Translations under genes and position numbers: made by a program
Notes under the pieces: generated by a model
What the model was told of the DNA's origin: nothing
Database searches by the model: none
What the model saw: the letters and a program-made list of their open reading frames with translations, nothing else
Shown: piece after piece, positions 1 to 61,901 of the stretch
Layout of the letters: each line of letters begins with the position of its first letter
Numbering within the stretch: position 1 is the first letter of the stretch
Origin: Clostridia bacterium
Lineage (GTDB): Bacteria; Bacillota; Clostridia; Saccharofermentanales; UBA5734
NCBI GenBank assembly: GCA_040776905.1
Contig: JAXGZQ010000001.1
Location: forward strand, 795,280 to 859,279
DNA length: 64,000 bases
Direction: 5' to 3'

Positions 1-775
1 CACGCAGGCAGTCGAATTCTTCTGTTTCAATGAAGGCGGGCGGCAGATTGGAAAAATCATCCGCTCTGGCCGGCGCGGCATACGCTCTCCGGCCAAAATC
101 GCCGTCGGCCAGATAGATCGGCCACATCTGCGCGTTCAGATGGGCATTCCAGCCCGGGACATCGGATAAATATCGGCTGGACCAGGTCTGCAGTCGGTCG
201 TCGAGCGCCGGATAAATCAGCAGCTGCAGACGAAGCGGCGGTCCGCCGCGATCTCTCGCCATGAGTGCCAGAGCCGCAGCCAGACCACCACCGGCACTGT
301 CGCCGCCGACGGCGATCCTTTGGGGGTCGATCCCCAGGTGGTCAGCCCGATCATGACACCAGAGCAGAGACTTGTAGCAGTCTTCCACGCCATGGGGAAA
401 TGGATAGGCAGGAGCCAGGCGATAATGGACGAACGCAACCGCGATCCCGGCGTGCCGCGCGTACCAGGCTGCCATTTTATGCATCGCGCCAAATTCACGC
501 ATCATGAAAGCGCCGCCATGACAATACACGAGGCATGGAACCGGCTCATACGTCTCGTCCGGGCGATAGACGGTTATCTTAACCGGATCGTCTTGATAAC
601 CGGCAATTTGATATCTATTCCGGCTGATTCCGGCCTTAGGTCTGAAAAATAAGCAGGTGAGTGCCGCGAACGAATTGATAAAACGCAGCATCCAGGGACG
701 GATCGTCACCTGTCCGAACGCGAAACGTCCGGCGACAGCGAAGTCCTCATGAAAAGAATATTGACCGTGCTTCAC
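1..775 (-). CDS. alpha/beta hydrolase, hormone-sensitive-lipase-type esterase (3' end runs off the window)
   Basis: Own minus-strand translation from GTG at 775 gives ...VYCHGGAFMM... (HGG oxyanion motif) and ...IAVGGDSAGGGLAAA... (GDSAG nucleophile elbow). The frame stays open to position 1. Track ORFs at 217-652 are shadow frames of this gene. Confidence 0.7.
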   Translation of the reverse strand, partial: MKHGQYSFHEDFAVAGRFAFGQVTIRPWMLRFINSFAALTCLFFRPKAGISRNRYQIAGYQDDPVKITVYRPDETYEPVPCLVYCHGGAFMMREFGAMHKMAAWYARHAGIAVAFVHYRLAPAYPFPHGVEDCYKSLLWCHDRADHLGIDPQRIAVGGDSAGGGLAAALALMARDRGGPPLRLQLLIYPALDDRLQTWSSRYLSDVPGWNAHLNAQMWPIYLADGDFGRRAYAAPARADDFSNLPPAFIETEEFDCLR

Positions 776-783
776 ACTTCACC

Positions 784-1965
784 TCACAGGTTCCGCAGCT
801 CATCAGGCAGCAGCATCAGTGCATCGGCCGCCGAACGAATTGAGCTGAACAGGCGGGGCGGCAGCCTTGGTTTTTCCTGCTGCTGCTTCCCCTCAATCAG
901 AATTTCCATCAGAAAAGCGAGCCGCAGCGGTGGCATGAGATGCAGCATCTTGAGTTCGCCACGCCGAATCGCCTGCAGCTTATGCTCAATACGCAGAGCC
1001 GCCCGTTTTTGCTGGTACAGCATCTGATAATCGGCTCTTTTCTGACGAATCGCCTCAATAAAGTTCACATGGTCATAGATCACCAGGCGATCCAGTTCAT
1101 AAATGGTGCCAGCCTGTTCCAGCCCGGCGACCGTTTCATAGCCGAAATCCCGCAGCAGGCGGGCGTAATCGTCCGGCCAGAAAGCGAAGCGATCCCCTTT
1201 CAGGCGGTCGAATGCCTTGAGGGTATCCAGGTAGCCGAGGCGCAGATTGCGCTGCAGGATACCAGGCGTTATATCAAGAAATCCCCCGAGATCTTCGGGG
1301 TCATGGATATAGATCAGCTGTGTATTATCATCAACTTCCCGAGCGCTGGTCGGTTTTTCATTGAGATCGATCGCGACGATCCGGCGCCAGCCGCGGCTGC
1401 GCAGCATGGACACCGGGACATGCTCAGCCAGGCCGCCATCGAGGAATTGCTGACCGTCGATCTCCACAGGGTCGAGACCCGGCAGACGGGCGCTGGCCAT
1501 GATATAGTCAATCAGGCGGCCTTCCGCCATATCCTGAATCCAGACAGGATAACCTCTCAGAGACGGCGTCAGCGTGGTCATCACGCCACATTGAAGCGGA
1601 CTTTCGCGGACAGCCGTCTCCGAGATGTAGCGTTCAAGCAGTTCACGCAGTGGACGTGTGCTCAGCTTTTTTTCATGCAGTAGTTCCCTGGCCAGAAGAT
1701 TCAGATTGCGCAGGCTGAGCAGGTCATCTGACTTGAGGCTCTGGATCTGGGAAAACGCCAGGCATTGCTCCATCTTCAGGTTATCCCACATCTCGATCGC
1801 GTCATCAAAAGAAGCACCACACATCAGGCCGGCGTTGACAGCGCCGATCGAAGTTCCGGCAACCGCGTCAAATTCAATACCTAGTTCCCGAAACGCCTGC
1901 CAGGCTCCCACCTGGAAGATCCCCTTTGCACCGCCGCCACCGAGTGCCAGCGCCATTCCTGCCAT
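784..1965 (-). CDS. patatin-like phospholipase family protein
   Basis: N-terminal GGGGAKG oxyanion loop followed by AGTSIGA (GxSxG lipase motif). 393 aa. Confidence 0.8.
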   Translation of the reverse strand: MAGMALALGGGGAKGIFQVGAWQAFRELGIEFDAVAGTSIGAVNAGLMCGASFDDAIEMWDNLKMEQCLAFSQIQSLKSDDLLSLRNLNLLARELLHEKKLSTRPLRELLERYISETAVRESPLQCGVMTTLTPSLRGYPVWIQDMAEGRLIDYIMASARLPGLDPVEIDGQQFLDGGLAEHVPVSMLRSRGWRRIVAIDLNEKPTSAREVDDNTQLIYIHDPEDLGGFLDITPGILQRNLRLGYLDTLKAFDRLKGDRFAFWPDDYARLLRDFGYETVAGLEQAGTIYELDRLVIYDHVNFIEAIRQKRADYQMLYQQKRAALRIEHKLQAIRRGELKMLHLMPPLRLAFLMEILIEGKQQQEKPRLPPRLFSSIRSAADALMLLPDELRNL

Positions 1966-2077: not shown

Positions 2078-2758
2078 TCAGAGGCCCAGTTTCGCTTTCA
2101 TCGCGGTCAGTTCATCCTCAACCGTCGCGTTGATCTCGCTGTTCTGATACTTGTCCTCGAGAGCCTGCGCCTCATCGATCGGAGCGGAATCCAGTTCAGC
2201 TCTGGCATTGGCTTCATCAAGCATTTTATCCGCTTTTTCTTCCATCCGGTTGAACGCGCTGAGGCTGCCCTGCGCCTTTTCGGCTGACGCGCCAATCTTG
2301 TTGAGGCGCTCCTGCGTATTGGCAACCGCGACTTTTGCCTTGATTGACTGCCGGCGGGCATTGAGTGAATTGATGTCCTTAACCAGTTTGTCATGCATCT
2401 GGCGCATCCGCACAGCGTTTTCCTTGGCGGAGGCATAAGCAGTTTCCAGACTGGCACCGATTGAACCGAGCTCCTGCTTCTTGGTCAGGAAGACACGTGC
2501 GTCGTCCTCATTGCCGCTGAGCAGCGCTTTTTTGGCGAGCGCTTCATATTTGGCTTCTTCTTTGTCATTTTCCTCAACGAGACGACGTGTGCGGCTTTCT
2601 TCAGCCATGACTCCGGCGGTTTCCTTTTTGACTTCAGCCAGATCATCCGCGAGGTTGCGCAGATACTGATCAATCATTTTCCCCGGATCTTCTGCTTTGT
2701 CCAGAAGCGCGTTGATGTTTGATGAAATAATGTCCTTGAATCTTGTCAGAATACTCAT
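2078..2758 (-). CDS. pspA: PspA/IM30 (phage-shock protein A / LiaH-like) family protein
   Basis: 226 aa. The all-coiled-coil sequence MSILTRFKDIISSNINALLDKAEDPGKMIDQYLRNL is typical of PspA/IM30. Its start overlaps the upstream stop (ATGA at 2755-2758). Confidence 0.85.
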   Translation of the reverse strand: MSILTRFKDIISSNINALLDKAEDPGKMIDQYLRNLADDLAEVKKETAGVMAEESRTRRLVEENDKEEAKYEALAKKALLSGNEDDARVFLTKKQELGSIGASLETAYASAKENAVRMRQMHDKLVKDINSLNARRQSIKAKVAVANTQERLNKIGASAEKAQGSLSAFNRMEEKADKMLDEANARAELDSAPIDEAQALEDKYQNSEINATVEDELTAMKAKLGL

Positions 2759-3816
2759 TGTTTATCCTCCTGTTTATTGGTTTCAGCCTGTTCGTACTTT
2801 CTCGCGAGGTCGTCCACTTCGCTTTCGCCGAATGTTTCCAGCTTCGTGTTGAGAATCTTGGCCGTTTGTTCTGCTTCCAGATTTTTCTGCTTTTGCCGTT
2901 TCTGCCACCAGATAAAAAGTATGATCAGGATGACCGCCGCACCGGTGACGACCATCACCGGGATCCACGGTGAACGGGTGACCTCCATGATGCGCTTGCC
3001 GGCATCATCGAAAGCCTTGCTGAAGAAAGCCTCTTCAGACAGATCATTATCGTAGTAATAGCGGTCAATATAATCCATCAGGATGTCAGCGGCTTCAGTA
3101 TCGATGACTGAGCGGGCCTGTACTCCGGTCAGGTACCAGGTATGGTATCGTCCCTGGAATTCCTGGAAAATGACCAGCAGATGGGCTTCGTCTTCAAACA
3201 ACCGGTCATAGAGCTGCCCGGCAAAAGCCTCCGCCTGTGCGTCGGTCGGGTTATAATGACCGTCAATCTGATCAGTCAGATACAAATAGGGCTGTACGCC
3301 GGTCGCCTGATAGAAATTTTTCATCCCCGCCAGCAGCTGTGTGCTCTGGCCGATCCAGTCCAGTTCGTCGGTAAAATAATCCGTTTCAATGACACTGCCG
3401 ACGGGAAGCGGTTCTCGCTTGACGGTCGACTTGGTCACAGCCTGTTCAGGATTGCCGGGTCCCGCTGAAAATACAATAGTCAATATGATGACGATGACCA
3501 GTCCGATGATAAAGATCGTCAGGCAGCCGGCGCCTGAGCATCCGCCCATCATACCGCTGGGGCCTGCCATCCGCGGTCCGCTGACTGTGGTCTGCCGACG
3601 ACTGGATCCAAAGATCGGCATCATCGGTATTCCCGGAGTCGTACGACGCCCGGAACCGGTCGAAAATCCGCCAAAAGGACTGCCTGTGTTCCGGCTGCCG
3701 GAAAAGCCTCCGGTTGAACGGCCGGTTCCTCCGCTGCCGCCGGACCGCCCGCCGAACCCGCGGCTGCCGCCTCCGCCGAAACTTCTGCCGCCACCGCCGC
3801 CACCTCGCTTCGCCAT
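2755..3816 (-). CDS. two-TM membrane protein with Gly/Arg/Ser-rich N-terminal tail and TPM-like central domain
   Basis: The ORF is open from 3858. I prefer ATG at 3816 (MAKRGGGGGG...). It has about 70 aa of RGG/SGG low complexity, a first TM, a domain with a TPM-like pattern (YFTDELDWIG...TGVQPYLYL...HLLVIFQE), a second TM and a charged tail. The domain call is by eye only. Confidence 0.45.
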   Translation of the reverse strand: MAKRGGGGGGRSFGGGGSRGFGGRSGGSGGTGRSTGGFSGSRNTGSPFGGFSTGSGRRTTPGIPMMPIFGSSRRQTTVSGPRMAGPSGMMGGCSGAGCLTIFIIGLVIVIILTIVFSAGPGNPEQAVTKSTVKREPLPVGSVIETDYFTDELDWIGQSTQLLAGMKNFYQATGVQPYLYLTDQIDGHYNPTDAQAEAFAGQLYDRLFEDEAHLLVIFQEFQGRYHTWYLTGVQARSVIDTEAADILMDYIDRYYYDNDLSEEAFFSKAFDDAGKRIMEVTRSPWIPVMVVTGAAVILIILFIWWQKRQKQKNLEAEQTAKILNTKLETFGESEVDDLARKYEQAETNKQEDKQ

Positions 3817-52519: not shown

Positions 52520-53455
52520 ATGAGCATCAGCCTTTCGACAACTGAATATTCCGGCCGGATTCTCTGGGTCGTCGCGCTTCAGATTGAAGCGAAACCTCTG
52601 ATTCAGCGCTTCAATCTCCGACGCGACATGGACGAACACCACTGGCCGGTCTATGGGAATGGATCGCACCGTCTGATCATCAGCGGTGTCGGTCAACTGA
52701 ACGCGGCCATGGCAGTGACCTGGCTGCTGGCAAGAGAGGATGAAATGCCGGCCGCCCTGATCAATGTCGGGCTCTGTGGCAGCAATCATCCCGATCTGCC
52801 CCAAGGGACACTCCTTCAGGCGAGTTCAATCACTGACGCGGCATCGCGGCGGATGTTCCTGCCGGATCTTTATACAGACTGGCCGCTGCCGCGGCATCCC
52901 CTGACCTGTTTTGATCAGGTGGTCGACGGCCGTTCCCAGGTGTCCGATGAACCGCTCACCTGTGATATGGAGTCAGCGGGAATCATGACGGCCGGACGGC
53001 GTTTTCTGCAGACGCATCAAGTCCATCTGTTTAAGGTGGTCTCGGATCGGCTGGATCCCCGGTCCGTTGACCGAGATCGGATCAGCCACTGGCTGGACGA
53101 TGCGGTTTGCCGGATCGCTGATTTTCTGCCCGATATCATGTCGCTTGCCGGGCAGGCGGATTCGGATGACACCCGGGAAACAGAGGCCATCCTGGCGATG
53201 GCTGAGACAAAGCTCCAGCCCAGCGGGTCAATGCGCCGGCAGATTCAACAGGAAGTCCGACTCGCCCTTCTGCGCGGACTCAGCCAGGAATATATCATCA
53301 GCCAGCTGCCGTCCGTTCCGGTCACCAGCCGGTATCAGGGCAAGCAGGAACTGCAGCGCTGGCGCGACGCACTGGTGACGGCGGCCGCAGAGCAGAAACA
53401 GCATCAGGTTCAATCTGGCCAGGATGGCCGGACCGGTTCAGGCAGAACGATATGA
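52520..53455 (+). CDS. PNP_UDP_1-superfamily nucleosidase (MTA/SAH-nucleosidase-like) with about 110-aa C-terminal extension
   Basis: The start is at an ATG with GGAGG 7 nt upstream. ...IISGVGQLNAAMAV... and ...CDMESAGI... resemble the MTAN/Pfs phosphate-ribose and catalytic motifs. I do not recognise the last 110 aa or so. Confidence 0.55.
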   Translation: MSISLSTTEYSGRILWVVALQIEAKPLIQRFNLRRDMDEHHWPVYGNGSHRLIISGVGQLNAAMAVTWLLAREDEMPAALINVGLCGSNHPDLPQGTLLQASSITDAASRRMFLPDLYTDWPLPRHPLTCFDQVVDGRSQVSDEPLTCDMESAGIMTAGRRFLQTHQVHLFKVVSDRLDPRSVDRDRISHWLDDAVCRIADFLPDIMSLAGQADSDDTRETEAILAMAETKLQPSGSMRRQIQQEVRLALLRGLSQEYIISQLPSVPVTSRYQGKQELQRWRDALVTAAAEQKQHQVQSGQDGRTGSGRTI

Positions 53456-54483
53456 AGCGGCTTTACCGGACAGTCTACCTGGAAAAACAGGCCAAAGAAC
53501 GGCCGCTGACGAGCCGGATCCTGGAACGACTGCCGGACTGTCCAGTGGTGGTTGTTGAGAATTACAAGCAGGCCTTCAACCGGCCCGGGCAGAATCAGCG
53601 GCTTCAGAAACAGTCTCCCGCTCTCATTCTGGCGGTTCATCCCGATCCACCGATCTATCCCGGACCGGCCATCTGCCAGAATTTCGGCCAGACGCGATTT
53701 GTTTATACCTCGTTTGTCCAGAATTGCCCGTTTGACTGCAGCTACTGCTTTCTTCAGGGTCTTTATCCGTCGTCGGATCAACTGATTTTTGTTAATCCGG
53801 AAGACTGGGCACACCGTCTTGCGCAGATGGCCGAAGACGGTCCCCTTTACGCGGCGTTATCACATGATTCGGATCTTCTTGCGCTGCAGGCCCGGTTTCC
53901 CCTGCTCGACCCGCTCGGTGATGATTGGCCTCAATCACCATCGATTCAGGCTGAAATACGAACAAAAAGCAGCTGGACCGGTTATTATACGCAGCATCAG
54001 CCACGTCAGAATCTGATCTTCGCTTTCTCGCTCGCGCCGCAGCCGCTGATTGATCTGTACGAACCGGTCACGCCGACATTGCGCTCCCGGCTGCTGGCGG
54101 CTCGTACCGCGCTCGATCACGGACACCCGGTGCGGCTCTGCTTTGACCCTGTCTTTGCTGATCCGGTCTATGATCACCTCTACGAGACTTTTTTCACGGA
54201 GGTTTTCCAGACCCTCGACCCTACCCGGCTGCACGATGCCAGCTATGGCTTCCTCCGGCTGCCCCGAACACTGTATCGACGGATCATTCAGCGGCGTCCG
54301 AACGCGCCATTCCTGGCTGAATCCTTGCAGCTAAGCGGTGAGACCGTCGGCTACGCGGCTGTGCGGCAGGCTGAAATTCGCCAGCGGCATCTGAACTGGC
54401 TGTCATCTTATCTCAGGAAAGATCAGATCTTTCTGGTTGAAGACACCGAAGCATCATGTCAGTTTGCTGATCAGACCCCGTAA
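53452..54483 (+). CDS. spore-photoproduct-lyase-family radical SAM protein
   Basis: ATGA overlap with the upstream gene. It carries a CPFDCSYC (CxxxCxxC) cluster motif. The length (343 aa) and N-terminal layout are collinear with my memory of B. subtilis SplB. Confidence 0.7.
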   Translation: MKRLYRTVYLEKQAKERPLTSRILERLPDCPVVVVENYKQAFNRPGQNQRLQKQSPALILAVHPDPPIYPGPAICQNFGQTRFVYTSFVQNCPFDCSYCFLQGLYPSSDQLIFVNPEDWAHRLAQMAEDGPLYAALSHDSDLLALQARFPLLDPLGDDWPQSPSIQAEIRTKSSWTGYYTQHQPRQNLIFAFSLAPQPLIDLYEPVTPTLRSRLLAARTALDHGHPVRLCFDPVFADPVYDHLYETFFTEVFQTLDPTRLHDASYGFLRLPRTLYRRIIQRRPNAPFLAESLQLSGETVGYAAVRQAEIRQRHLNWLSSYLRKDQIFLVEDTEASCQFADQTP

Positions 54484-55052
54484 TCCGCGACATATTCAAT
54501 CGCGGCTACCATATCCTCTTCCATCAGAAACAGGAGGATCGACTCGCCGCGATGATAAGCCAGAGCGGTTCCCTGTAATTCGTACTCATCACCATACGCT
54601 TCGATGACATCCTCTCGAGTTGAGCCGATCCGGATCCCCTCCTCAGTCGCGACGGTGTCATCCAGCAGGACAATCAGCGAGATATGATCCTCTCCACCTT
54701 CCGGAACAGTTGAGATCTCAAAACTGCTGTAGGTATAGATTTTATCCAGTCCCGCAAAAGCACAGCTCTCCGCTTCAAAATAGCTCATGGCTTCGCCCAG
54801 GTCGTCAATCACTTGATCCGCCAGGGCAAATGGCGCGATTTTCACCGACTGGTAAGTGAATGTGAACAGATCATCGGCAGCATCGCCATTCGGAGTTGTC
54901 GCAGGCTGGCCGGTTCCGGACGGCGCTTCTGCGGTGCCGGAAGTGGCGGCGGAACCACAGCCTGATATGACCAGCCCGCAGATGATCAGGATGATCAGTA
55001 AAGGCCAGTGTTTCCCAGAAATATTCTTTTTTGATTGATTCATTTGCATCAT
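54471..55052 (-). CDS. lipoprotein of unknown function (last gene of the dlt-like operon)
   Basis: LIILIICGLVISGCGS lipobox. GGAGG sits 5 nt upstream. There is a 71-nt gap from the upstream gene on the same strand. Confidence 0.6.
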   Translation of the reverse strand: MMQMNQSKKNISGKHWPLLIILIICGLVISGCGSAATSGTAEAPSGTGQPATTPNGDAADDLFTFTYQSVKIAPFALADQVIDDLGEAMSYFEAESCAFAGLDKIYTYSSFEISTVPEGGEDHISLIVLLDDTVATEEGIRIGSTREDVIEAYGDEYELQGTALAYHRGESILLFLMEEDMVAAIEYVADYGV

Positions 55053-55123: not shown

Positions 55124-56221
55124 CTACTGCTCATCTTCCGGCTCCGGCGCACGGGCACCAAAGCTTTTCAAGTAGCCATACTGTTCAATCTCCCGATGCT
55201 GGGCGGCCGCCATTTCATCGTAGCGGTTCACTTTTTTCTCCCAGACCGCACTGAGCCGCGGATCATTGCGATGATCTTCCAGATTATAGGCAGCCTGCAG
55301 AAGCGGACCGAAATAATGAGACATCTTCTCAGCGCCGCTCAGATTAAGATGAAGTCCGCTGTCATACGTGTCCTGCGTAAAATCGAGTCCGATGTCATCA
55401 ATTACTTCGAGAAAGTTGATGTACATCAGCTGATGTTCGTCCGCGTAGACCCGCATCTGTTCATCCCACTGATCATACCAGTATGGGTAGAGGCTGGGAG
55501 CTTTAATCAGGACCAGTTCGATATCATGCTGTTCACACAGTTCGACCATTTTATCCAGATAGGCATAGGCACGATCACCAAACTGGTAATCCGGCAGCGG
55601 TCGTCCAACCGGAACGTTTTCCGCCGGACGGACATCGGCCCGCATCAGGAAACCATTATGTGCGACCGGGTCGCGGCGGAACAGATATCTGACATCCTCA
55701 CTGGTCAGTTCACTCCAGCGGGCTTTATAGCGAAGCAGTGGAAAAAAATAAGAGATCAGGCTCTCATCTTCGGTCATCGACGCCATCGCGGAACGGATCT
55801 TCGGCAGACCGAGCCGCATCCCGTCAATATTCAGCCGATTATACGGCTCGCTCTGCGGCTGGTCATACTGCATGCCGAGCGCACTGAAAATAACAACCCG
55901 CGGTGTTTCATAACGGAGAATTTCCTCCAGCATATGGTAAGACTGCCAGATCAGCTGCTGGCCGCTGCCACTGATGTAGCTGGTCAGGCCATATTCCCGC
56001 CATAACGTGATCGGTGAGAAATTTTCATAAACCTCACAGTCACCGATGAAAATGATATCGTTATCGCCGGTGTTCTCATAATACTCAGCAATTAATGCTC
56101 CTTCGGGAATTTCCGACATATATTTCGGCATGACCAGCTCCTGCAGAACCAGCAGGATGCTGATCAGCAGGACGATCGCGACAAGATATCGAAAAAAGGT
56201 TCCTGTTCTCTTTTTTGTCAT
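55124..56221 (-). CDS. membrane-anchored SGNH/DltD-like protein (Cys at the block-I nucleophile position)
   Basis: N-terminal TM. Block-I-like IIFIGDCEVY and block-V-like YDSGLHLN (DxxH). AGGAG RBS. It follows the MBOAT gene after 10 nt. Confidence 0.5.
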   Translation of the reverse strand: MTKKRTGTFFRYLVAIVLLISILLVLQELVMPKYMSEIPEGALIAEYYENTGDNDIIFIGDCEVYENFSPITLWREYGLTSYISGSGQQLIWQSYHMLEEILRYETPRVVIFSALGMQYDQPQSEPYNRLNIDGMRLGLPKIRSAMASMTEDESLISYFFPLLRYKARWSELTSEDVRYLFRRDPVAHNGFLMRADVRPAENVPVGRPLPDYQFGDRAYAYLDKMVELCEQHDIELVLIKAPSLYPYWYDQWDEQMRVYADEHQLMYINFLEVIDDIGLDFTQDTYDSGLHLNLSGAEKMSHYFGPLLQAAYNLEDHRNDPRLSAVWEKKVNRYDEMAAAQHREIEQYGYLKSFGARAPEPEDEQ

Positions 56222-56231
56222 TCAAATGCTC

Positions 56232-57824
56232 CTAGAACTGATTATAGATAAATTGAGTCGAGTCGTAACCGATACCATAAGCGCCAAACAGCAGAATCGC
56301 GATCAGCAGCAATGAGTAAAGCGCGTAGCGCAGCGCGAACGGCCGCTGCCGGATGCGTTCACGTACACCGCCGGACCGCTGTACCAGACTGACGACGGCC
56401 AACAGCACAATTCCCGCCAGAAGAACCAGGTAGTCCGCCCGGTTCAGACCCAGCTGCAGCAGCGACCCATCTGTAAAGACCTCAAGCTTGAACCGGGTGA
56501 AGACAGACGTGTACATGCTCAGGGCTGTACCGATATCCCGGTAGATGTCAAAGATTCGAATTGAACACATGATCCAGAACATACGAGTCACCTGGAACAG
56601 GCGGAACCAGGTGGTTTGCTGCACAGAAAACCGGGCATGGAACCGGCGGTACAGCGGAATCATTTCCTGAGATACAAGAATGACCAGGCAATTGGCCATT
56701 CCCCAGGCGACGAAATTCCAGCTCGCGCCGTGCCAGATTCCGGTCGTCAGCCAGACCAGAATGGTTGCCAGATAGACGGGCAGCCGCTTACCGACCGCGT
56801 CACCAAGATGTTTACGTGCCCAGCCGGACAGACGCAGCATCGGCTGACTGACCGAGATCGGATAAAAGAGGTATTCCTTGAACCAGGTGCCCAGTGTGAT
56901 ATGCCAGCGGCGCCAGTATTCGGTGATGGATTTCGCGAAAAACGGCCGCTGGAAATTCTCAGTCACCTTAATGCCCAGCATCTGGGCGATGCCGATGGTG
57001 ATATCGATTCCACCGGTAAAATCAGCATACAGCTGAACCGCGTAATAGACCATGGCAATCAGGACATAGCTGCCCTGATATTGTTGCGGGTCACCGATGA
57101 TTGTTGAGACCGCGACCACAATCCGGTCGGCAATGACCATTTTCTTAAAATAGCCCCAGAGAATTCGCTGCAGACCATAGCTGACGGCCTGCCGGTCGAA
57201 TCCGTGCGGCTGGTACAGCGACTGCGCCAGATCATCGTATCGGCTGATCGGTCCTTGAATCAATTGGGGAAAGAACGAAACAAACAGCGCCAGACGGAAG
57301 ATATTACGTTCTGCAGGGTACTTGCCGCGGTGGACATCAATCACATAGCCCATACTCTGGAATGTATAAAAAGAGATACCGAGCGGCAGGGCGAGATTCA
57401 TGAATGTTAAGGTTTTTCCGCTGCCAAAGACCTGCAGCAGCGCATTGATATTGCCGATTGTGAAATTTCCGTATTTCAAAACACCGAGCAGGCCGAAATT
57501 AATCAGCAGGCACAGCAGCAGCCAGCGCCAGCGGACTGATCTTGCCTTATCACGGAAACTGCGTTTTTCCTGGCGGGACAGGCCGGCCTGATGCTCACTG
57601 AACCACTGTTTTTCCCGATCACGCAGCCGCTGCAGCTGCCGGCCGATCAGATAAGTGGATCCGGTCGTTATGAGCAGATAGGCCATGAACTGCAGACCGG
57701 CAAAACTGTAGAACAGATAACTGGCGGCCAGCAGCAGCATCCATTGATACCGCTTTGGAATCAGATAATAGGCAGCAAATAGCAATCCCAGAAACAGGAT
57801 AAACTCAAACGATACAAAACTCAT
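56232..57824 (-). CDS. MBOAT-family membrane O-acyltransferase (DltB/AlgI-like)
   Basis: 530 aa, polytopic. ...ITEYWRRWHITLGTWFKEYLFYP contains the conserved MBOAT His. Confidence 0.85.
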   Translation of the reverse strand: MSFVSFEFILFLGLLFAAYYLIPKRYQWMLLLAASYLFYSFAGLQFMAYLLITTGSTYLIGRQLQRLRDREKQWFSEHQAGLSRQEKRSFRDKARSVRWRWLLLCLLINFGLLGVLKYGNFTIGNINALLQVFGSGKTLTFMNLALPLGISFYTFQSMGYVIDVHRGKYPAERNIFRLALFVSFFPQLIQGPISRYDDLAQSLYQPHGFDRQAVSYGLQRILWGYFKKMVIADRIVVAVSTIIGDPQQYQGSYVLIAMVYYAVQLYADFTGGIDITIGIAQMLGIKVTENFQRPFFAKSITEYWRRWHITLGTWFKEYLFYPISVSQPMLRLSGWARKHLGDAVGKRLPVYLATILVWLTTGIWHGASWNFVAWGMANCLVILVSQEMIPLYRRFHARFSVQQTTWFRLFQVTRMFWIMCSIRIFDIYRDIGTALSMYTSVFTRFKLEVFTDGSLLQLGLNRADYLVLLAGIVLLAVVSLVQRSGGVRERIRQRPFALRYALYSLLLIAILLFGAYGIGYDSTQFIYNQF

Positions 57825-57847: not shown

Positions 57848-58084
57848 TTACTCATCAAGCAGCCGTGAGACCATCGCGGCCAGAGCCGGCGCCGAATTGA
57901 AATTCTCCGGTACGATCTCATTGGCGGGAATGGTCACATCAAACTCATTGCTCATTTCCGCGATCAGTGTCACGATATCGAATGAGTCGAGGATCTTATC
58001 ATCGATCAATGTCTGATGTGACGTGAAGTCAACATCCGGGTGCATTTCACTGAGAATTTCCATAATATCATCAACGAGTGCCAT
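57848..58084 (-). CDS. DltC-like aminoacyl carrier protein
   Basis: 78 aa. ...KILDSFDIVTLIAEM contains the phosphopantetheine Ser in a DS motif. The start overlaps the adenylase gene by 14 nt, with GAGGAG upstream. Confidence 0.8.
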   Translation of the reverse strand: MALVDDIMEILSEMHPDVDFTSHQTLIDDKILDSFDIVTLIAEMSNEFDVTIPANEIVPENFNSAPALAAMVSRLLDE

Positions 58085-59636
58085 GTTTCTCCTCTTTCTC
58101 CCCGGCCGGGCTTTTCCGGTCAGGCTTTGTCTGATCCAGCAGTCGGCGCAGCGACTGCCGGTCGATCTTCCGGTTGCTCGTCAGGGGCATGGTGTCAAGC
58201 TGGCGGACCACATTCGGCAGCATGTATCGGGGCAGCCGGCCGCGCAGAAACCGGCTAACATCAGCGGCCGGGGCCGAACCAACATAAAAGAGCCAGATTT
58301 TCTGCTTATCATGATCATACAGGCAGCCAGTATGCTCGACACCGCTGTACATGCCGGCGATGACTTCAATCTCACCCAGTTCTATCCGATGCCCCATATG
58401 CTTGATCTGCTGATCCAGCCGGGACATGAAAACCAGTTCGCCCCGTTCATTCAGCCGCCCCAGGTCACCGGTACGATAGATCAGTTCAGTGTAGGCATCG
58501 TTGAGCGGGTTCTGGACAAAGGCGGCCTGTGTTTTTTCAGGATCACGATAATATCCCATGGTCAAAGAGGTCCCGCGGATGCAGATCTCTCCGGGCTGAC
58601 CAGGGGCCGGGATCTTCTGATGTTCATCAAGCAGAAGGATTTCGGTATTCGGGAAGGGGCGGCCGATCGGAATGACTTCATTCAGTTGAAATTCCCGGTC
58701 AACTTCATAATAACAGCAGACACCCGTCGTCTCCGTCGGACCATACAAATTGATAAAGCGGGCCTCCGGCAGGGCCTGGCGCCATCGGTTGAACTGCTTG
58801 ATCGGAAAGACTTCGCTGGCGAAGGCGATTGTCTTCAGATGCTCCGGTAACAGCTGCTCGAGAACGCCCAGCCCGGATACCATGGTCAGGGCGGAGACGA
58901 CCCAGCAGATCGTGTTGATCCGATGCGTATTGAGATACTCGACCAGACGGAGCGGAAACATGAACAGCTGCTTCGGAATAATATAGGTGGTCGCGCCGAA
59001 TTTTAAGGTCGGGATGATTTCCTTGAGACAGGCATCGAAATACAACGGGGTCTGATTGCCGAATACCGTATCCGGGCCAAAATCGAGAAGTTCGGACAAG
59101 GTTTCAACATAACGGATCACCGATCGATGATTGGCGATGACGCCTTTGGGAATGCCGGTCGATCCTGATGTGAAGACGATATAAGCCGGATCGGTATCAA
59201 TCGCGCGGGTCTGCCTGTCAGCCAGCCGGTCTGCGTCTTCCGCGGCCAGGATCATCTCATTATAATGATACATCGCACTGTCCGGTGACAATTCCGCCGC
59301 CAGTTCACATGTCGAGTCATCACAGATCAGAGCCTTTGGCCGCAATTCGCGTAAAATCAGTTCGATCCGGTGAGCCGGCATTTCCTGATCGAGCGCGACA
59401 TAATAACAACCGGCGTACAGTACACCGAAAAAGGCGACGATCGGCCGGGGGCCTCGCGCCATGAAGACGACAACCGGTTCACGGTCATGCCCGTGAGCTG
59501 ACAAAAATGAGCCGATACGCCTTGCCTGTTCCCGTGTTTCGTGAAATGTCAGACTGGTCTCGCCATCGCTGAACGCCAGTTTTTCCGGCACCCGCTGTAC
59601 GATCATATCAAGATATTCCATCAGATGTTTCTGCAT
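58071..59636 (-). CDS. DltA-like amino-acid adenylation enzyme (ANL superfamily)
   Basis: A-domain core motifs are present: YIVFTSGSTGIPKG (A3), FDACLKE (A4), NLYGPTE (A5), YRTGD (A7), GRxDxQIKxxGxRIELGEIE-like (A8) and PLTSNRKIDR (A10). Confidence 0.85.
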   Translation of the reverse strand: MQKHLMEYLDMIVQRVPEKLAFSDGETSLTFHETREQARRIGSFLSAHGHDREPVVVFMARGPRPIVAFFGVLYAGCYYVALDQEMPAHRIELILRELRPKALICDDSTCELAAELSPDSAMYHYNEMILAAEDADRLADRQTRAIDTDPAYIVFTSGSTGIPKGVIANHRSVIRYVETLSELLDFGPDTVFGNQTPLYFDACLKEIIPTLKFGATTYIIPKQLFMFPLRLVEYLNTHRINTICWVVSALTMVSGLGVLEQLLPEHLKTIAFASEVFPIKQFNRWRQALPEARFINLYGPTETTGVCCYYEVDREFQLNEVIPIGRPFPNTEILLLDEHQKIPAPGQPGEICIRGTSLTMGYYRDPEKTQAAFVQNPLNDAYTELIYRTGDLGRLNERGELVFMSRLDQQIKHMGHRIELGEIEVIAGMYSGVEHTGCLYDHDKQKIWLFYVGSAPAADVSRFLRGRLPRYMLPNVVRQLDTMPLTSNRKIDRQSLRRLLDQTKPDRKSPAGEKEEKHGTR

Positions 59637-59671: not shown

Positions 59672-60415
59672 TCAGGACACGATCAGCGATTCGTGATCGT
59701 CTCTCAGCGCAGCTCCGCTGGCAATCACCGCGGCCCGGGCCAATATTCCCATCGCGTCATGAAAACCCGGCCCCAGTGTCCGGCGCATCTGAACCACAGA
59801 TAATTCCGTGCAGCCGAGAACAATGGTCTGGGCTCCTTTTTGCCGCAGCGCGCCGCTGATCTCTGTGAGTTTTTGCCGGTCAACCGGCCGTTCTGCCTTG
59901 ACCTGGTCATAGATGATGTTCATCAGGTCCTGTTGATGGACCGCGTCTGGCAGAACAATGGCCAAACCGGCTTCATCAGCCGCGCTTTGAAACAGTCGGC
60001 TGCTGACGGTTCCATCCGTCGCCAGCAGTCCGATTTTTTCGAATGATTGGTTCCTCAGGTAGCGGACGGTCTCCCCGACCAGATGAATGACCGGAATCGG
60101 CAGCGCTGTACTGAGCTGATCGTAGAAGTAGTGGGCGGTAATACAGGGGATCGCGATCCTGTCCGCACCGAGGGCAGCCAGCATACGTCCCGCTTCAATC
60201 AGGGCGGGAACCGGACTGACCGCATGGTCCGGATCAAGAATATAGCGGGTCCGGTCAGGAATTTCCGGATGGCTGTGGATCATTACCTGCAAATGATCCT
60301 GATCAGCCGAGGCATCGGTCATACGGACGACCTGCTCATAAAAGCTGGCCGTCGCCAGGGGGCCGAGACCGCCGATCACACCGAGAATCTGCTTTGAGCG
60401 GCCGCGTACTGTCAT
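59672..60415 (-). CDS. Asp/Glu/hydantoin-racemase-family amino-acid racemase (aspartate-racemase type)
   Basis: GVIGGLGPLATASFY, IPCITAHYF and LGCTELS carry the two catalytic-Cys motifs of cofactor-independent racemases. This is not the MurI pattern. Confidence 0.75.
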   Translation of the reverse strand: MTVRGRSKQILGVIGGLGPLATASFYEQVVRMTDASADQDHLQVMIHSHPEIPDRTRYILDPDHAVSPVPALIEAGRMLAALGADRIAIPCITAHYFYDQLSTALPIPVIHLVGETVRYLRNQSFEKIGLLATDGTVSSRLFQSAADEAGLAIVLPDAVHQQDLMNIIYDQVKAERPVDRQKLTEISGALRQKGAQTIVLGCTELSVVQMRRTLGPGFHDAMGILARAAVIASGAALRDDHESLIVS

Positions 60416-61698
60416 GGCCGGGCCTCCGGCGTCGCCGGATATTTTTCCGGGTCCCAGACATGGCTGCCACGATGTTCATCTGAATAGGCAGTGATCTCAG
60501 CGTCGGTCAGCATGAAGAACTCACCGCCGCCGACACGGGGCGTCGTGTCAAAATGATACCAGCCATACCCGAGATTGATCAGGCTCCAGAAATGGCCTTC
60601 ATCGGTACGGATCACATCAATCGACTCGATCCCGGCTCTGGTCAGCAGAATCTTCGCCGTCGCGAAATAGTTGAAACAGTCGCCATATGCTTCGGTTATG
60701 CCATGGTGGGCAGCATTGATCCAACTGGATTTATCGGATTCATTGACATAGCGAATGTGGCCCCGCGTCCAGTGATAAATCGCTTCAGCCCTGGCCTCAG
60801 GCGTCATGTCAGGGGTCAGGATGTCGGTCAGAATCTGGTCAGCGAGATCGTCAACAACCGCCGGGTCTACACTGCCGGGCACCGGCTCGACCACCGTGAT
60901 CGTCGCGCTGACCTGAGTTTTGTTTCCGGCCTTGTCCGCCGCGATATAGTGAACCGGATAGGTGCCGGGTACACGCAGATTGACCTGGCTGTTGTCTATG
61001 ATCAGCTCAGGCTCGACATCCCGGTTATCGGAAACGGTGACGCCCTGCCGGTAGGCAACGGTCGAGCCGGCAAACACCGTCTGGCTCTCCACGCCTTCAA
61101 TAAGAGGGGGCTGTGTATCTTCATACAGCGTCAACACAGCGGTGAGCACGGTCTGATTGCCGCCGAGATCCGTCAGGACGATGTCCACCGGCTGATCGCC
61201 GATCACCGAGAGGTCAGGGGCCCGCGCATAAGCGATCTCAACCGAGGTCGCGTCCTGAACATCCTCAACAAAGTCCGCCGCGGCAAACGGCTCATCAAGC
61301 CAGAAAGCCCGATTGACCGCCCGTCCGGTCGGCGCGGTCGTGTCTGAGACTTTGACAACGGTATCATAGGTATGCTGATTGACCGCGACGCGCAGTGGAT
61401 AATAACCGGGCACATGCGTATTCACGCTGGCCGGATCTGACAGCCAGCGGGCTTCTGCCGCCGGATCAAGCAGGAAATCGCCGAGATCAAGGGATTCCTT
61501 GCCGGCTTCAATGACCACGGACGCCTCAACCAGCGCTGGTTTGGGGCTGAGCCACGGCTGAACCCGCGGACCGATATACAGCGCCAGAGTGACAAGCACC
61601 AGCGTGCCGGTCAGAAAGATCAGGATCCGGTCAATATGCGGCCGTCGTTTTCGTCGGCCACTGAATTGATTTTTTTCTCGTCTACTACTCATTGTCAT
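60412..61698 (-). CDS. membrane-anchored surface protein: Ig-like (DUF5011-type) repeats + transglutaminase-like Cys-protease core
   Basis: N-terminal basic tail plus a TM. ...PGTYPVHYIAADKAGNKTQVSATITVV is an Ig-like module. The C-terminal YGDCFNYF...GHFWSL...WYHFD gives a Cys-His-Asp transglutaminase core. The stop overlaps the racemase start (ATGA). Confidence 0.7.
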   Translation of the reverse strand: MTMSSRREKNQFSGRRKRRPHIDRILIFLTGTLVLVTLALYIGPRVQPWLSPKPALVEASVVIEAGKESLDLGDFLLDPAAEARWLSDPASVNTHVPGYYPLRVAVNQHTYDTVVKVSDTTAPTGRAVNRAFWLDEPFAAADFVEDVQDATSVEIAYARAPDLSVIGDQPVDIVLTDLGGNQTVLTAVLTLYEDTQPPLIEGVESQTVFAGSTVAYRQGVTVSDNRDVEPELIIDNSQVNLRVPGTYPVHYIAADKAGNKTQVSATITVVEPVPGSVDPAVVDDLADQILTDILTPDMTPEARAEAIYHWTRGHIRYVNESDKSSWINAAHHGITEAYGDCFNYFATAKILLTRAGIESIDVIRTDEGHFWSLINLGYGWYHFDTTPRVGGGEFFMLTDAEITAYSDEHRGSHVWDPEKYPATPEARP

Positions 61699-61901
61699 CT
61701 CGTTTCATACCATGCTGATGCCGCAATGACGACCAGCCTGAAACTCGAGGAGGCGTCATCTGCTGTCTTTATACGAGGAATCTGCCATAAATGTTCCTGA
61801 TGCCAGCAGGGTGCGCCAGGATCAGACACATATAGGCTATTTTATCGCGCATTGGCTAAAATGACAATGAAACCATATTACGATCTGGTCACAATGATCA
61901 A

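Follow-up and report, generated by a model that had tools for sequence, protein, structure and literature searches.

Gram-positive bacteria classically tune the charge of their surface, their interaction with the host and their resistance to cationic peptides through D-alanylation by the Dlt system. D-Aspartate (D-Asp) reaches the peptidoglycan cross-bridges of enterococci and lactococci by a route made up of a pyridoxal phosphate (PLP)-independent aspartate racemase and the ATP-grasp D-aspartate ligase Aslfm. Dlt is one of the pathways that use an MBOAT membrane acyltransferase together with an SGNH-fold protein, and those other than Dlt are without a similar carrier protein (PMC12148441). 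The acyl-shuttle motif FXYXXF, in which the tyrosine bears the acyl group, is found on the microprotein DltX in Dlt and is fused after two extra helices in acetyl-CoA-dependent MBOATs, for example as FIYANF in PatA (PMC12148441). In the Dlt adenylation enzyme, DltA, a cysteine (Cys269) close to the substrate C-alpha enforces D-selectivity, and a C269A replacement relaxes the preference (PMC4176424). Here we describe a locus in a genome of Clostridia bacterium (assembly GCA_040776905.1, contig JAXGZQ010000001.1, positions 795,280 to 859,279; this whole stretch of 64,000 nucleotides is called the window below), in which a stand-alone amino-acid adenylation enzyme with lysine at position 239 of its substrate pocket is encoded in a seven-gene, minus-strand cassette. 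In order, the genes specify a transglutaminase-like protein, a racemase, the adenylation enzyme, a carrier protein, an MBOAT protein, an SGNH-fold protein and a lipoprotein (Table 1). The cassette is apparently undescribed, our literature search having found no description of it, is widespread in Clostridia, and probably attaches an acidic amino acid to the cell envelope.

An earlier note on this DNA had aligned the A4 core motif of the adenylation enzyme by eye to that of the phenylalanine-activating domain of GrsA (PheA), which put Asp at position 235, Ala at 236 and Lys at 239 (GrsA numbering). MAFFT and HMMER alignments to GrsA and DltA give the same three assignments, to Asp201, Ala202 and Lys205 of the enzyme. 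Codons 59042-59019 (minus strand) translate to YFDACLKE, in frame within the open reading frame (ORF) at 59636-58071 (minus strand), and FDACLKE aligns without gaps to FDASVWE of GrsA and FDLSVMD of DltA in three MAFFT runs and in HMMER pairwise alignments, the latter with maximal posterior probability over the motif. The GrsA reference equals 1AMU chain A over residues 1-556, residue 2 excepted; for DltA, the B. subtilis sequence, which equals 3E7W except at three residues, and the B. cereus sequence from 3FCC were used, and the sequences so checked read FDLSVM, as the note had stated. Identity between PheA (1AMU) and the enzyme is about 27%, with the A4 motif ungapped, and Trp239 of PheA is replaced by lysine, flanked in the pocket by the small residues C278, A299 and A301.

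Beyond the A4 motif, the distance from Asp235 to position 278 is 43 residues in GrsA, DltA and the query alike. Positions 299 and 301 fall within IAFASEV of the query, which corresponds to LITAGSA in GrsA and FLFCGEV in DltA, and position 322 lies within the query motif INLYGPTE. Asp201 (235) and Lys490 (517, the A10 lysine) are found in every alignment. For B. cereus DltA the numbering obtained was Asp197 (235), Cys269 (301) and Lys492 (517), and the register is supported because these positions match the residue roles described for that enzyme (PMC4176424). In the AlphaFold model of the adenylation enzyme residues 200-206 are helical, so that residues 201, 202 and 205 (i, i+1 and i+4) lie on one face, and Lys205 very probably lines the substrate pocket. 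The code derived by hand, D-A-K-C-A-A-L-G-V-K, was recovered in two MAFFT runs and by HMMER against DltA, where the segment past YGPTETT is ungapped. It ends V-C when a one-residue gap is put in GrsA (one MAFFT run, and HMMER against GrsA), and only positions 330 and 331 are uncertain because the placement of this one-residue indel differs between alignments.

Lys239 is strictly conserved among relatives. All 120 of the best database homologues (60-98% identity) read D-A-K-C at the first four code positions, and a scan of species-representative genomes gave 80 loci at 53-65% identity to the adenylation enzyme. Among the cassette copies, which span 53-98% identity, Lys239 is present in 85/85 and Asp235 in 84/85, and the code of the family follows the pattern DAKC[ACGV][AGV]LG[IMV]K, with position 301 never occupied by Cys. 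Position 237 varies between C, Y, P, W, I and S, and since Lys239 is invariant while this position varies, the lysine is under selection and is no passenger of overall similarity. The A4 match is not a chance one. The cassette was found in about 85 loci, some of them of cultured species; among the cultured carriers are Lachnospira intestinalis CLA-AA-H89B, Mobilitalea sibirica, Proteiniborus ethanoligenes and Cuneatibacter sp. NSJ-177. The hosts include Oscillospiraceae (many of them Faecousia), Lachnospiraceae (including the cultured Lachnospira intestinalis), Acutalibacteraceae and others. By way of the 365-aa (amino acid) SGNH-fold protein, the cassette was also reached in Proteiniborus ethanoligenes, a Mobilitalea-like genome and a metagenome-assembled genome (MAG) of the Tissierellaceae. 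Every long locus examined (Oscillospiraceae, Lachnospiraceae, Proteiniborus and Tissierellaceae) has the same gene set with unrelated flanks.

Two side observations concern the adenylation enzymes themselves. The A10 motif of the window enzyme reads NRKIDR, compared with NGKIDR in its homologues and GrsA, Arg replacing Gly at residue 489; the catalytic A10 lysine is retained despite this change. One locus (L077) carries at 2266-3777 (+) a paralogous stand-alone adenylation enzyme, which scores 457 bits to the query and has the code DNLFYCMDVK. The paralogue has Cys at position 301, as does DltA, and a 74-aa ORF follows it, with no MBOAT gene nearby.

The 521-aa enzyme matches Pfam AMP-binding (E=5.8e-72) and passes the NCBIfam model for amino-acid adenylation domains (TIGR01733, 342.8 bits against a cutoff of 317.4). 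Its AlphaFold2 model has a predicted local distance difference test (pLDDT) value of 79.7, and the best PDB match found by Foldseek is 1AMU_A (E=7.7e-41); the top matches (1AMU, Txo2, PltF and DltA, with E-values of 1e-41 to 1e-35) indicate the two-domain adenylating fold. By both sequence and fold, the enzyme is closest to the adenylation domains of nonribosomal peptide synthetases (NRPSs), for example those of LgrA, GrsA and Txo2. This resemblance would suit a small NRPS-like pathway in which the adenylation enzyme and the carrier feed a soluble natural product. A pathway of that kind was rejected because no condensation, thioesterase or reductase domain is encoded in any of the approximately 85 loci, and it is exceedingly improbable given that the invariant partners are a shuttle-motif MBOAT and three extracytoplasmic, membrane-anchored proteins. 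A search of representative proteins with the adenylation enzyme gave 150 listed matches, all of them giant multi-module NRPSs by summed score, and did not reveal sister families.

The system that the cassette calls to mind most readily is Dlt. Both have a stand-alone adenylation enzyme and a small carrier protein, a DltB-like MBOAT encoded downstream, the FXYXXF motif and a membrane-anchored SGNH-fold protein. The cassette could on this basis be taken for an ordinary dlt operon, with a DltA that activates D-alanine for teichoic acids: the order adenylation enzyme, carrier, MBOAT and SGNH protein resembles dltABCD, the leading NCBIfam matches, judged by name, include the models for DltA, DltB and DltC, and one homologue (P0043) is labelled 'D-alanine--poly(phosphoribitol) ligase subunit 1'. 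The Dlt scores are, however, far below cutoff, and an ordinary dlt operon was rejected partly on these scores: the adenylation enzyme reaches 248.9 bits on TIGR01734 (cutoff 559.85) and 256.5 bits on NF003417 (cutoff 476), the MBOAT 138.6 bits on the DltB model TIGR04091 (cutoff 375) and the carrier 34.7 bits on the DltC model (cutoff 68). The pockets also differ. DltA has DLMT[ML]CTVAK where the cassette enzyme has DAKCAALGVK, so all eight variable positions are different and only the two universal residues are common to both; in particular, Cys269 of DltA (position 301) is replaced by Ala273. The residues A, C, A, A and G of the cassette pocket are smaller than L, T, L/M, C and V at the same places in DltA, which makes it likely that the substrate is larger than alanine.

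Further differences from Dlt are found in the partner proteins. The Dlt shuttle motif resides on the separate DltX, whereas in the cassette it is fused to the MBOAT and there is no DltX. The SGNH-fold protein is a different protein from DltD: it gives no match to Pfam DltD at E<=1, and DltD is absent from the top 50 Foldseek matches of its model. It also has a Cys in place of the nucleophilic Ser. Relative to Dlt, the cassette adds a racemase, which is of the aspartate and not the alanine type, a transglutaminase-like protein and a lipoprotein. A D-alanine operon of the usual sort is, in view of these differences, very improbable, and we take the cassette to be Dlt-like in its working without being a dlt operon.

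The MBOAT has DltB structures as its only sequence matches in the PDB (8JEM and 6BUG, E of about 1e-22), and its RWH (His308) and WHG (His365) motifs align with the histidines of DltB. It is about 100 residues longer than DltB, with a C-terminal extension that carries two hydrophobic helices. A C-terminal hexapeptide F[IV]YxxF is present in 71/78 cassette MBOATs, FIY is found a few residues from the end in six more, and one is without it. Two extra C-terminal helices, a terminal FXYXXF and a separate SGNH partner are features that the cassette has in common with PatA/PatB, AlgI/AlgJ and WssH. The donor sets them apart: PatA-type systems use acetyl-CoA and have no carrier protein (PMC12148441), while in the cassette an adenylation enzyme and a carrier are always encoded beside the MBOAT, and this invariable proximity implies an aminoacyl-S-carrier as donor. 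The last 14 bases of the adenylation gene are shared with the carrier gene, and the DS motif is conserved in 78/80 cassette carrier proteins. As far as can be read from the encoded proteins, the architecture is a hybrid, in which a Dlt-type donor (adenylation enzyme and carrier) is joined to a PatA-type, self-shuttling MBOAT. We consider it likely that the cassette specifies a carrier-dependent MBOAT-SGNH pathway that aminoacylates the envelope.

The SGNH-fold protein is presumed to be the extracytoplasmic transferase. Its AlphaFold2 model (pLDDT 85) has SGNH hydrolases as its Foldseek matches, with PatB at ranks 29-36. Cys62, which stands where the nucleophilic Ser of an SGNH triad is expected, is invariant in 31/31 aligned homologues, the surrounding motif GDCE[VIL]YE is found at 73/75 loci, and a conserved D..H pair (D287 and H291) is also present. 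The invariant cysteine of the GDC block suggests a thioester intermediate. The protein belongs to a large group, with about 6,000 database matches at E<=1e-5. Further pairs of MBOAT and SGNH-like genes, without an adenylation enzyme, are found near the cassette in two loci (L038, 19-2015; L075, 15957-17439), and are presumably O-acetylation systems of the acetyl-CoA type.

The racemase encoded next to the adenylation enzyme had been called aspartate-type in the earlier note, and the family comparisons agree. It scores 194.2 bits on TIGR00035 (cutoff 93.1), its best PDB match is the aspartate racemase of P. horikoshii (1JFL, E=1.8e-46), it has the PDRT arginine and counterparts of both catalytic cysteines of that enzyme (Cys82 and Cys194), and models for glutamate racemase give only about 29 bits. 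The start of the racemase gene overlaps the stop of the upstream, transglutaminase-like gene by 4 bases. A racemase is present in 59/83 non-duplicate loci, where its gene takes one of three positions in the cassette: it stands between the transglutaminase-like and adenylation genes, ahead of the former, or last, at the 3' end. Translational coupling and retention at three positions across lineages argue that the linkage is a functional one. The D-Asp route of enterococci and lactococci likewise has a dedicated PLP-independent aspartate racemase; that route is cytoplasmic, with an ATP-grasp enzyme acting on UDP-N-acetylmuramoyl (MurNAc)-peptide, and is without an adenylation enzyme, carrier or MBOAT. 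At the Proteiniborus ethanoligenes locus (L086) the racemase gene is beside genes for a divergently oriented, Ddl-C-like ATP-grasp protein (113-1303, minus strand) and a Mur ligase (1-78, minus strand). NCBIfam matches of this ATP-grasp protein are weak and of the generic ATP-grasp kind only; it may be a peptidoglycan D-aspartate ligase that shares the cassette racemase.

Four points argue for an acidic substrate: the pocket, small and apolar for the rest, has a conserved cationic residue at its floor; Asp235 and Lys517 provide the normal binding mode for an alpha-amino acid; an aspartate-type racemase is translationally coupled and present in 59/83 loci; and the NRPS codes known to us include just one with Lys239, which is for glutamate. 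An acidic cargo is, on balance, moderately probable, and D-Asp in particular is put forward as a tentative assignment. The judgements on the pocket, the pathway, the acidic cargo and D-Asp are nested estimates. As a whole, the explanation that Lys205 is a pocket residue of an adenylation enzyme feeding carrier-dependent MBOAT-SGNH aminoacylation of the envelope seems to us evenly poised.

A number of observations weigh against D-Asp as the cargo, and some of them favour other substrates. Both the acidic nature of the substrate and its D configuration are matters that we infer, and without the gate provided by Cys269 in DltA the adenylation enzyme might take either enantiomer. The precedent for Lys239 among NRPS codes is for Glu and not for Asp; Stachelhaus is said to have given it in 1999 as D-A-K-D-L-G-V-V-D-K, and a text search of the literature for the string DAKDLGVVDK found nothing. 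It matches the cassette code at 4/10 positions (D235, A236, K239 and K517) and elsewhere has D, L, G, V, V and D where the cassette has C, A, A, L, G and V. The canonical NRPS code for Asp, DLTKVGHIGK, has Lys278 and His322 and does not have Lys239. A variant of the Asp code, DLTKVGHVGK, is quoted in PMC12283262, and a search of the tables and supplement of that paper found no D-A-K code.

The relation between Lys239 and the racemase also counts against D-Asp. At least 11 cassettes whose flanks each cover 3 kb or more have no racemase nearby yet keep Lys239, and because the lysine is invariant with or without a racemase the two do not co-vary. Position 301 alone tracks racemase linkage: a racemase accompanies Ala or Val at this position in each of the 45 cassettes where this could be determined, and Gly301 is found in all 11 racemase-less cassettes and in 14 that have one. 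This association could reflect different cargo, for example D-Glu from MurI, and is confounded by phylogeny. Were glutamate the substrate, whether as L-Glu or as D-Glu made by the housekeeping MurI, its gamma-carboxylate would meet Lys239 in the manner of NRPS Glu domains, and the racemase would be dispensable or otherwise used. The roomier pocket that Gly301 gives to the racemase-less cassettes, the agreement of Gly301 with the Glu code and the small pocket residues, which would admit a longer side chain, are all consistent with this. We nevertheless regard glutamate as rather unlikely, as the racemase is aspartate-type by its match to 1JFL and its low scores on glutamate-racemase models, it is kept in most of the non-duplicate loci, including the 14 cassettes with Gly301, and two of the four matches to the Glu code are invariant in all alpha-amino-acid domains.

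The invariance of Lys239 with or without a racemase would also be expected if the lysine filled the pocket, hydrogen-bonded a neutral polar substrate such as Ser, Asn or Thr, or were purely structural, with the proximity of the racemase being uninformative. Specificity codes, moreover, predict poorly for stand-alone, non-NRPS adenylation enzymes. A role of this sort is unlikely: on energetic grounds it would be odd for a lysine to be buried without a partner, Asp235 and Lys517 point to normal binding of an alpha-amino acid, and the racemase is translationally coupled and kept at three cassette positions across lineages.

A further point against D-Asp comes from the racemase itself, which passes the NCBIfam model NF052483, 'cysteate racemase CuyB', with 209.4 bits (cutoff 190), as do two cassette racemases from other genomes (226.8 and 192.3 bits). 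The substrate might then be D-cysteate or another sulfonated or anionic analogue of aspartate, supplied by a CuyB-type racemase, and a sulfonate would pair with Lys239 as well. CuyB is itself a member of the aspartate racemase family and was defined via genomic linkage to the D-cysteate sulfo-lyase CuyA (PMC11193023), whereas no CuyA was found among the genes of the cassettes examined. TIGR00035 scores similarly to the CuyB model on the window racemase and exceeds it on the racemase of another cassette (L087). The name 'cysteate racemase', which automated annotation would probably give, looks over-specific for the window protein, and a sulfonated cargo is improbable.

Returning to D-Asp as the tentative cargo, the steps of the pathway would be as follows. 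The racemase would supply an acidic amino acid in its D form, with D-Asp the likeliest. In the adenylation enzyme Asp201 would anchor the alpha-amine and Lys490 (517) the alpha-carboxylate, while Lys205, at the floor of the pocket, would neutralise the carboxylate of the side chain. The carrier would then receive the amino acid on its Ser34. If the MBOAT acts as DltB/DltX and PatA do (PMC12148441), it would move the aminoacyl group across the membrane and onto the tyrosine in the FIYNQF at its C-terminus, from which the GDC-type SGNH protein would take it, possibly as a thioester, to an acceptor in the envelope. The presence of two extracytoplasmic cysteine enzymes invites the speculation that the products are possibly amides and not esters.

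Table 1. Features of the cassette and its surroundings (positions are those of the window).
Feature	Positions	Strand	Basis
Best candidate for a sigma-70-like promoter (TTGTCA-17-TAAAAT), ahead of the first cassette gene	61839..61867	-	10/12 matches, weak
Membrane-anchored surface protein with Ig-like and transglutaminase-like core; first cassette gene	60412..61698	-	Pfam Transglut_core, Bact_surface_Ig-like
PLP-independent aspartate-type amino-acid racemase, 247 aa; Cys91, Cys202, PDRT Arg56	59672..60415	-	Pfam Asp_Glu_race E=2.6e-43
Stand-alone amino-acid adenylation enzyme, 521 aa, code DAKCAALGVK	58071..59636	-	Pfam AMP-binding, TIGR01733
A4 core motif YFDACLKE; Asp201=235, Ala202=236, Lys205=239 (GrsA)	59019..59042	-	translation and alignments
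Codon of Lys205 (Stachelhaus position 239)	59022..59024	-	translates to K
Carrier protein, 78 aa; phosphopantetheine serine Ser34 in LDSFD	57848..58084	-	Pfam PP-binding 22.2 bits
MBOAT membrane acyltransferase, 530 aa, DltB-like core	56232..57824	-	Pfam MBOAT E=3.3e-16
C-terminal hexapeptide FIYNQF, FXYXXF acyl-shuttle motif fused to the MBOAT	56235..56252	-	sequence
Membrane-anchored SGNH/GDSL-fold protein, 365 aa	55124..56221	-	weak Pfam Lipase_GDSL_2; fold match
G60-D61-C62, SGNH block I with Cys at the usual nucleophilic Ser	56036..56044	-	sequence
Predicted lipoprotein, 193 aa, lipobox ISGC; last conserved cassette gene	54471..55052	-	sequence

Two accessory components, the transglutaminase-like protein and the lipoprotein, are also conserved in the cassette. 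In the former the triad Cys341, His369 and Asp384 is intact (motifs GDC, GHFW and HFDT), the GxC motif is kept in 82/85 cassette copies, and a sequence search of the PDB found no homologue. Its gene is duplicated in four loci (L003, L013, L032 and L046). The lipoprotein gene follows the SGNH gene in most loci, and Pfam has no family for the 193-aa protein. In the window, a convergent gene at 53452-54483 (+), for a radical SAM protein weakly similar to spore photoproduct lyase, runs 13 bases into the 3' end of the lipoprotein gene. In total the region holds no more promoter-like sites than expected from shuffled sequence, and PADLOC defence models gave no match.

Some genomes carry two full copies of the cassette, as seen on contig JAEVYT010000017.1 (L072 and L075) and within one MAG (L024 and L025). 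On JAEVYT010000017.1 about 146 kb separate the two copies, whose adenylation enzymes share 81% identity and have the same code. A 243-kb contig labelled 'Burkholderiales bacterium' (L056, JBLNCA010000045.1) has the cassette at 59% identity and is likely a mis-binned or mislabelled MAG contig.

As a single-residue pointer Lys239 has proved correct and useful, and its functional reading is plausible, though unproven. That gut and rumen Clostridia (Oscillospiraceae, Lachnospiraceae and Tissierellia) have an undescribed pathway that places D-Asp on a surface polymer, with Lys239 as specificity switch, is possible, if on the doubtful side. Dlt has been treated as the sole carrier-dependent MBOAT-SGNH pathway (PMC12148441), a generalisation that the cassette contradicts, and a D-Asp pathway, if true, would be the first such system besides Dlt. 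Lys239 would then be the determinant that turns Dlt-like machinery away from D-Ala, which adds charge, and towards a residue that is zwitterionic or anionic, and its codon is a simple specificity handle that is open to testing. The cassette is abundant in Clostridia of the gut and rumen; if its cargo is D-Asp or otherwise acidic, the surface charge of these bacteria would shift in the direction opposite to the effect of D-Ala, and gut D-aspartate would gain a new bacterial sink or source.

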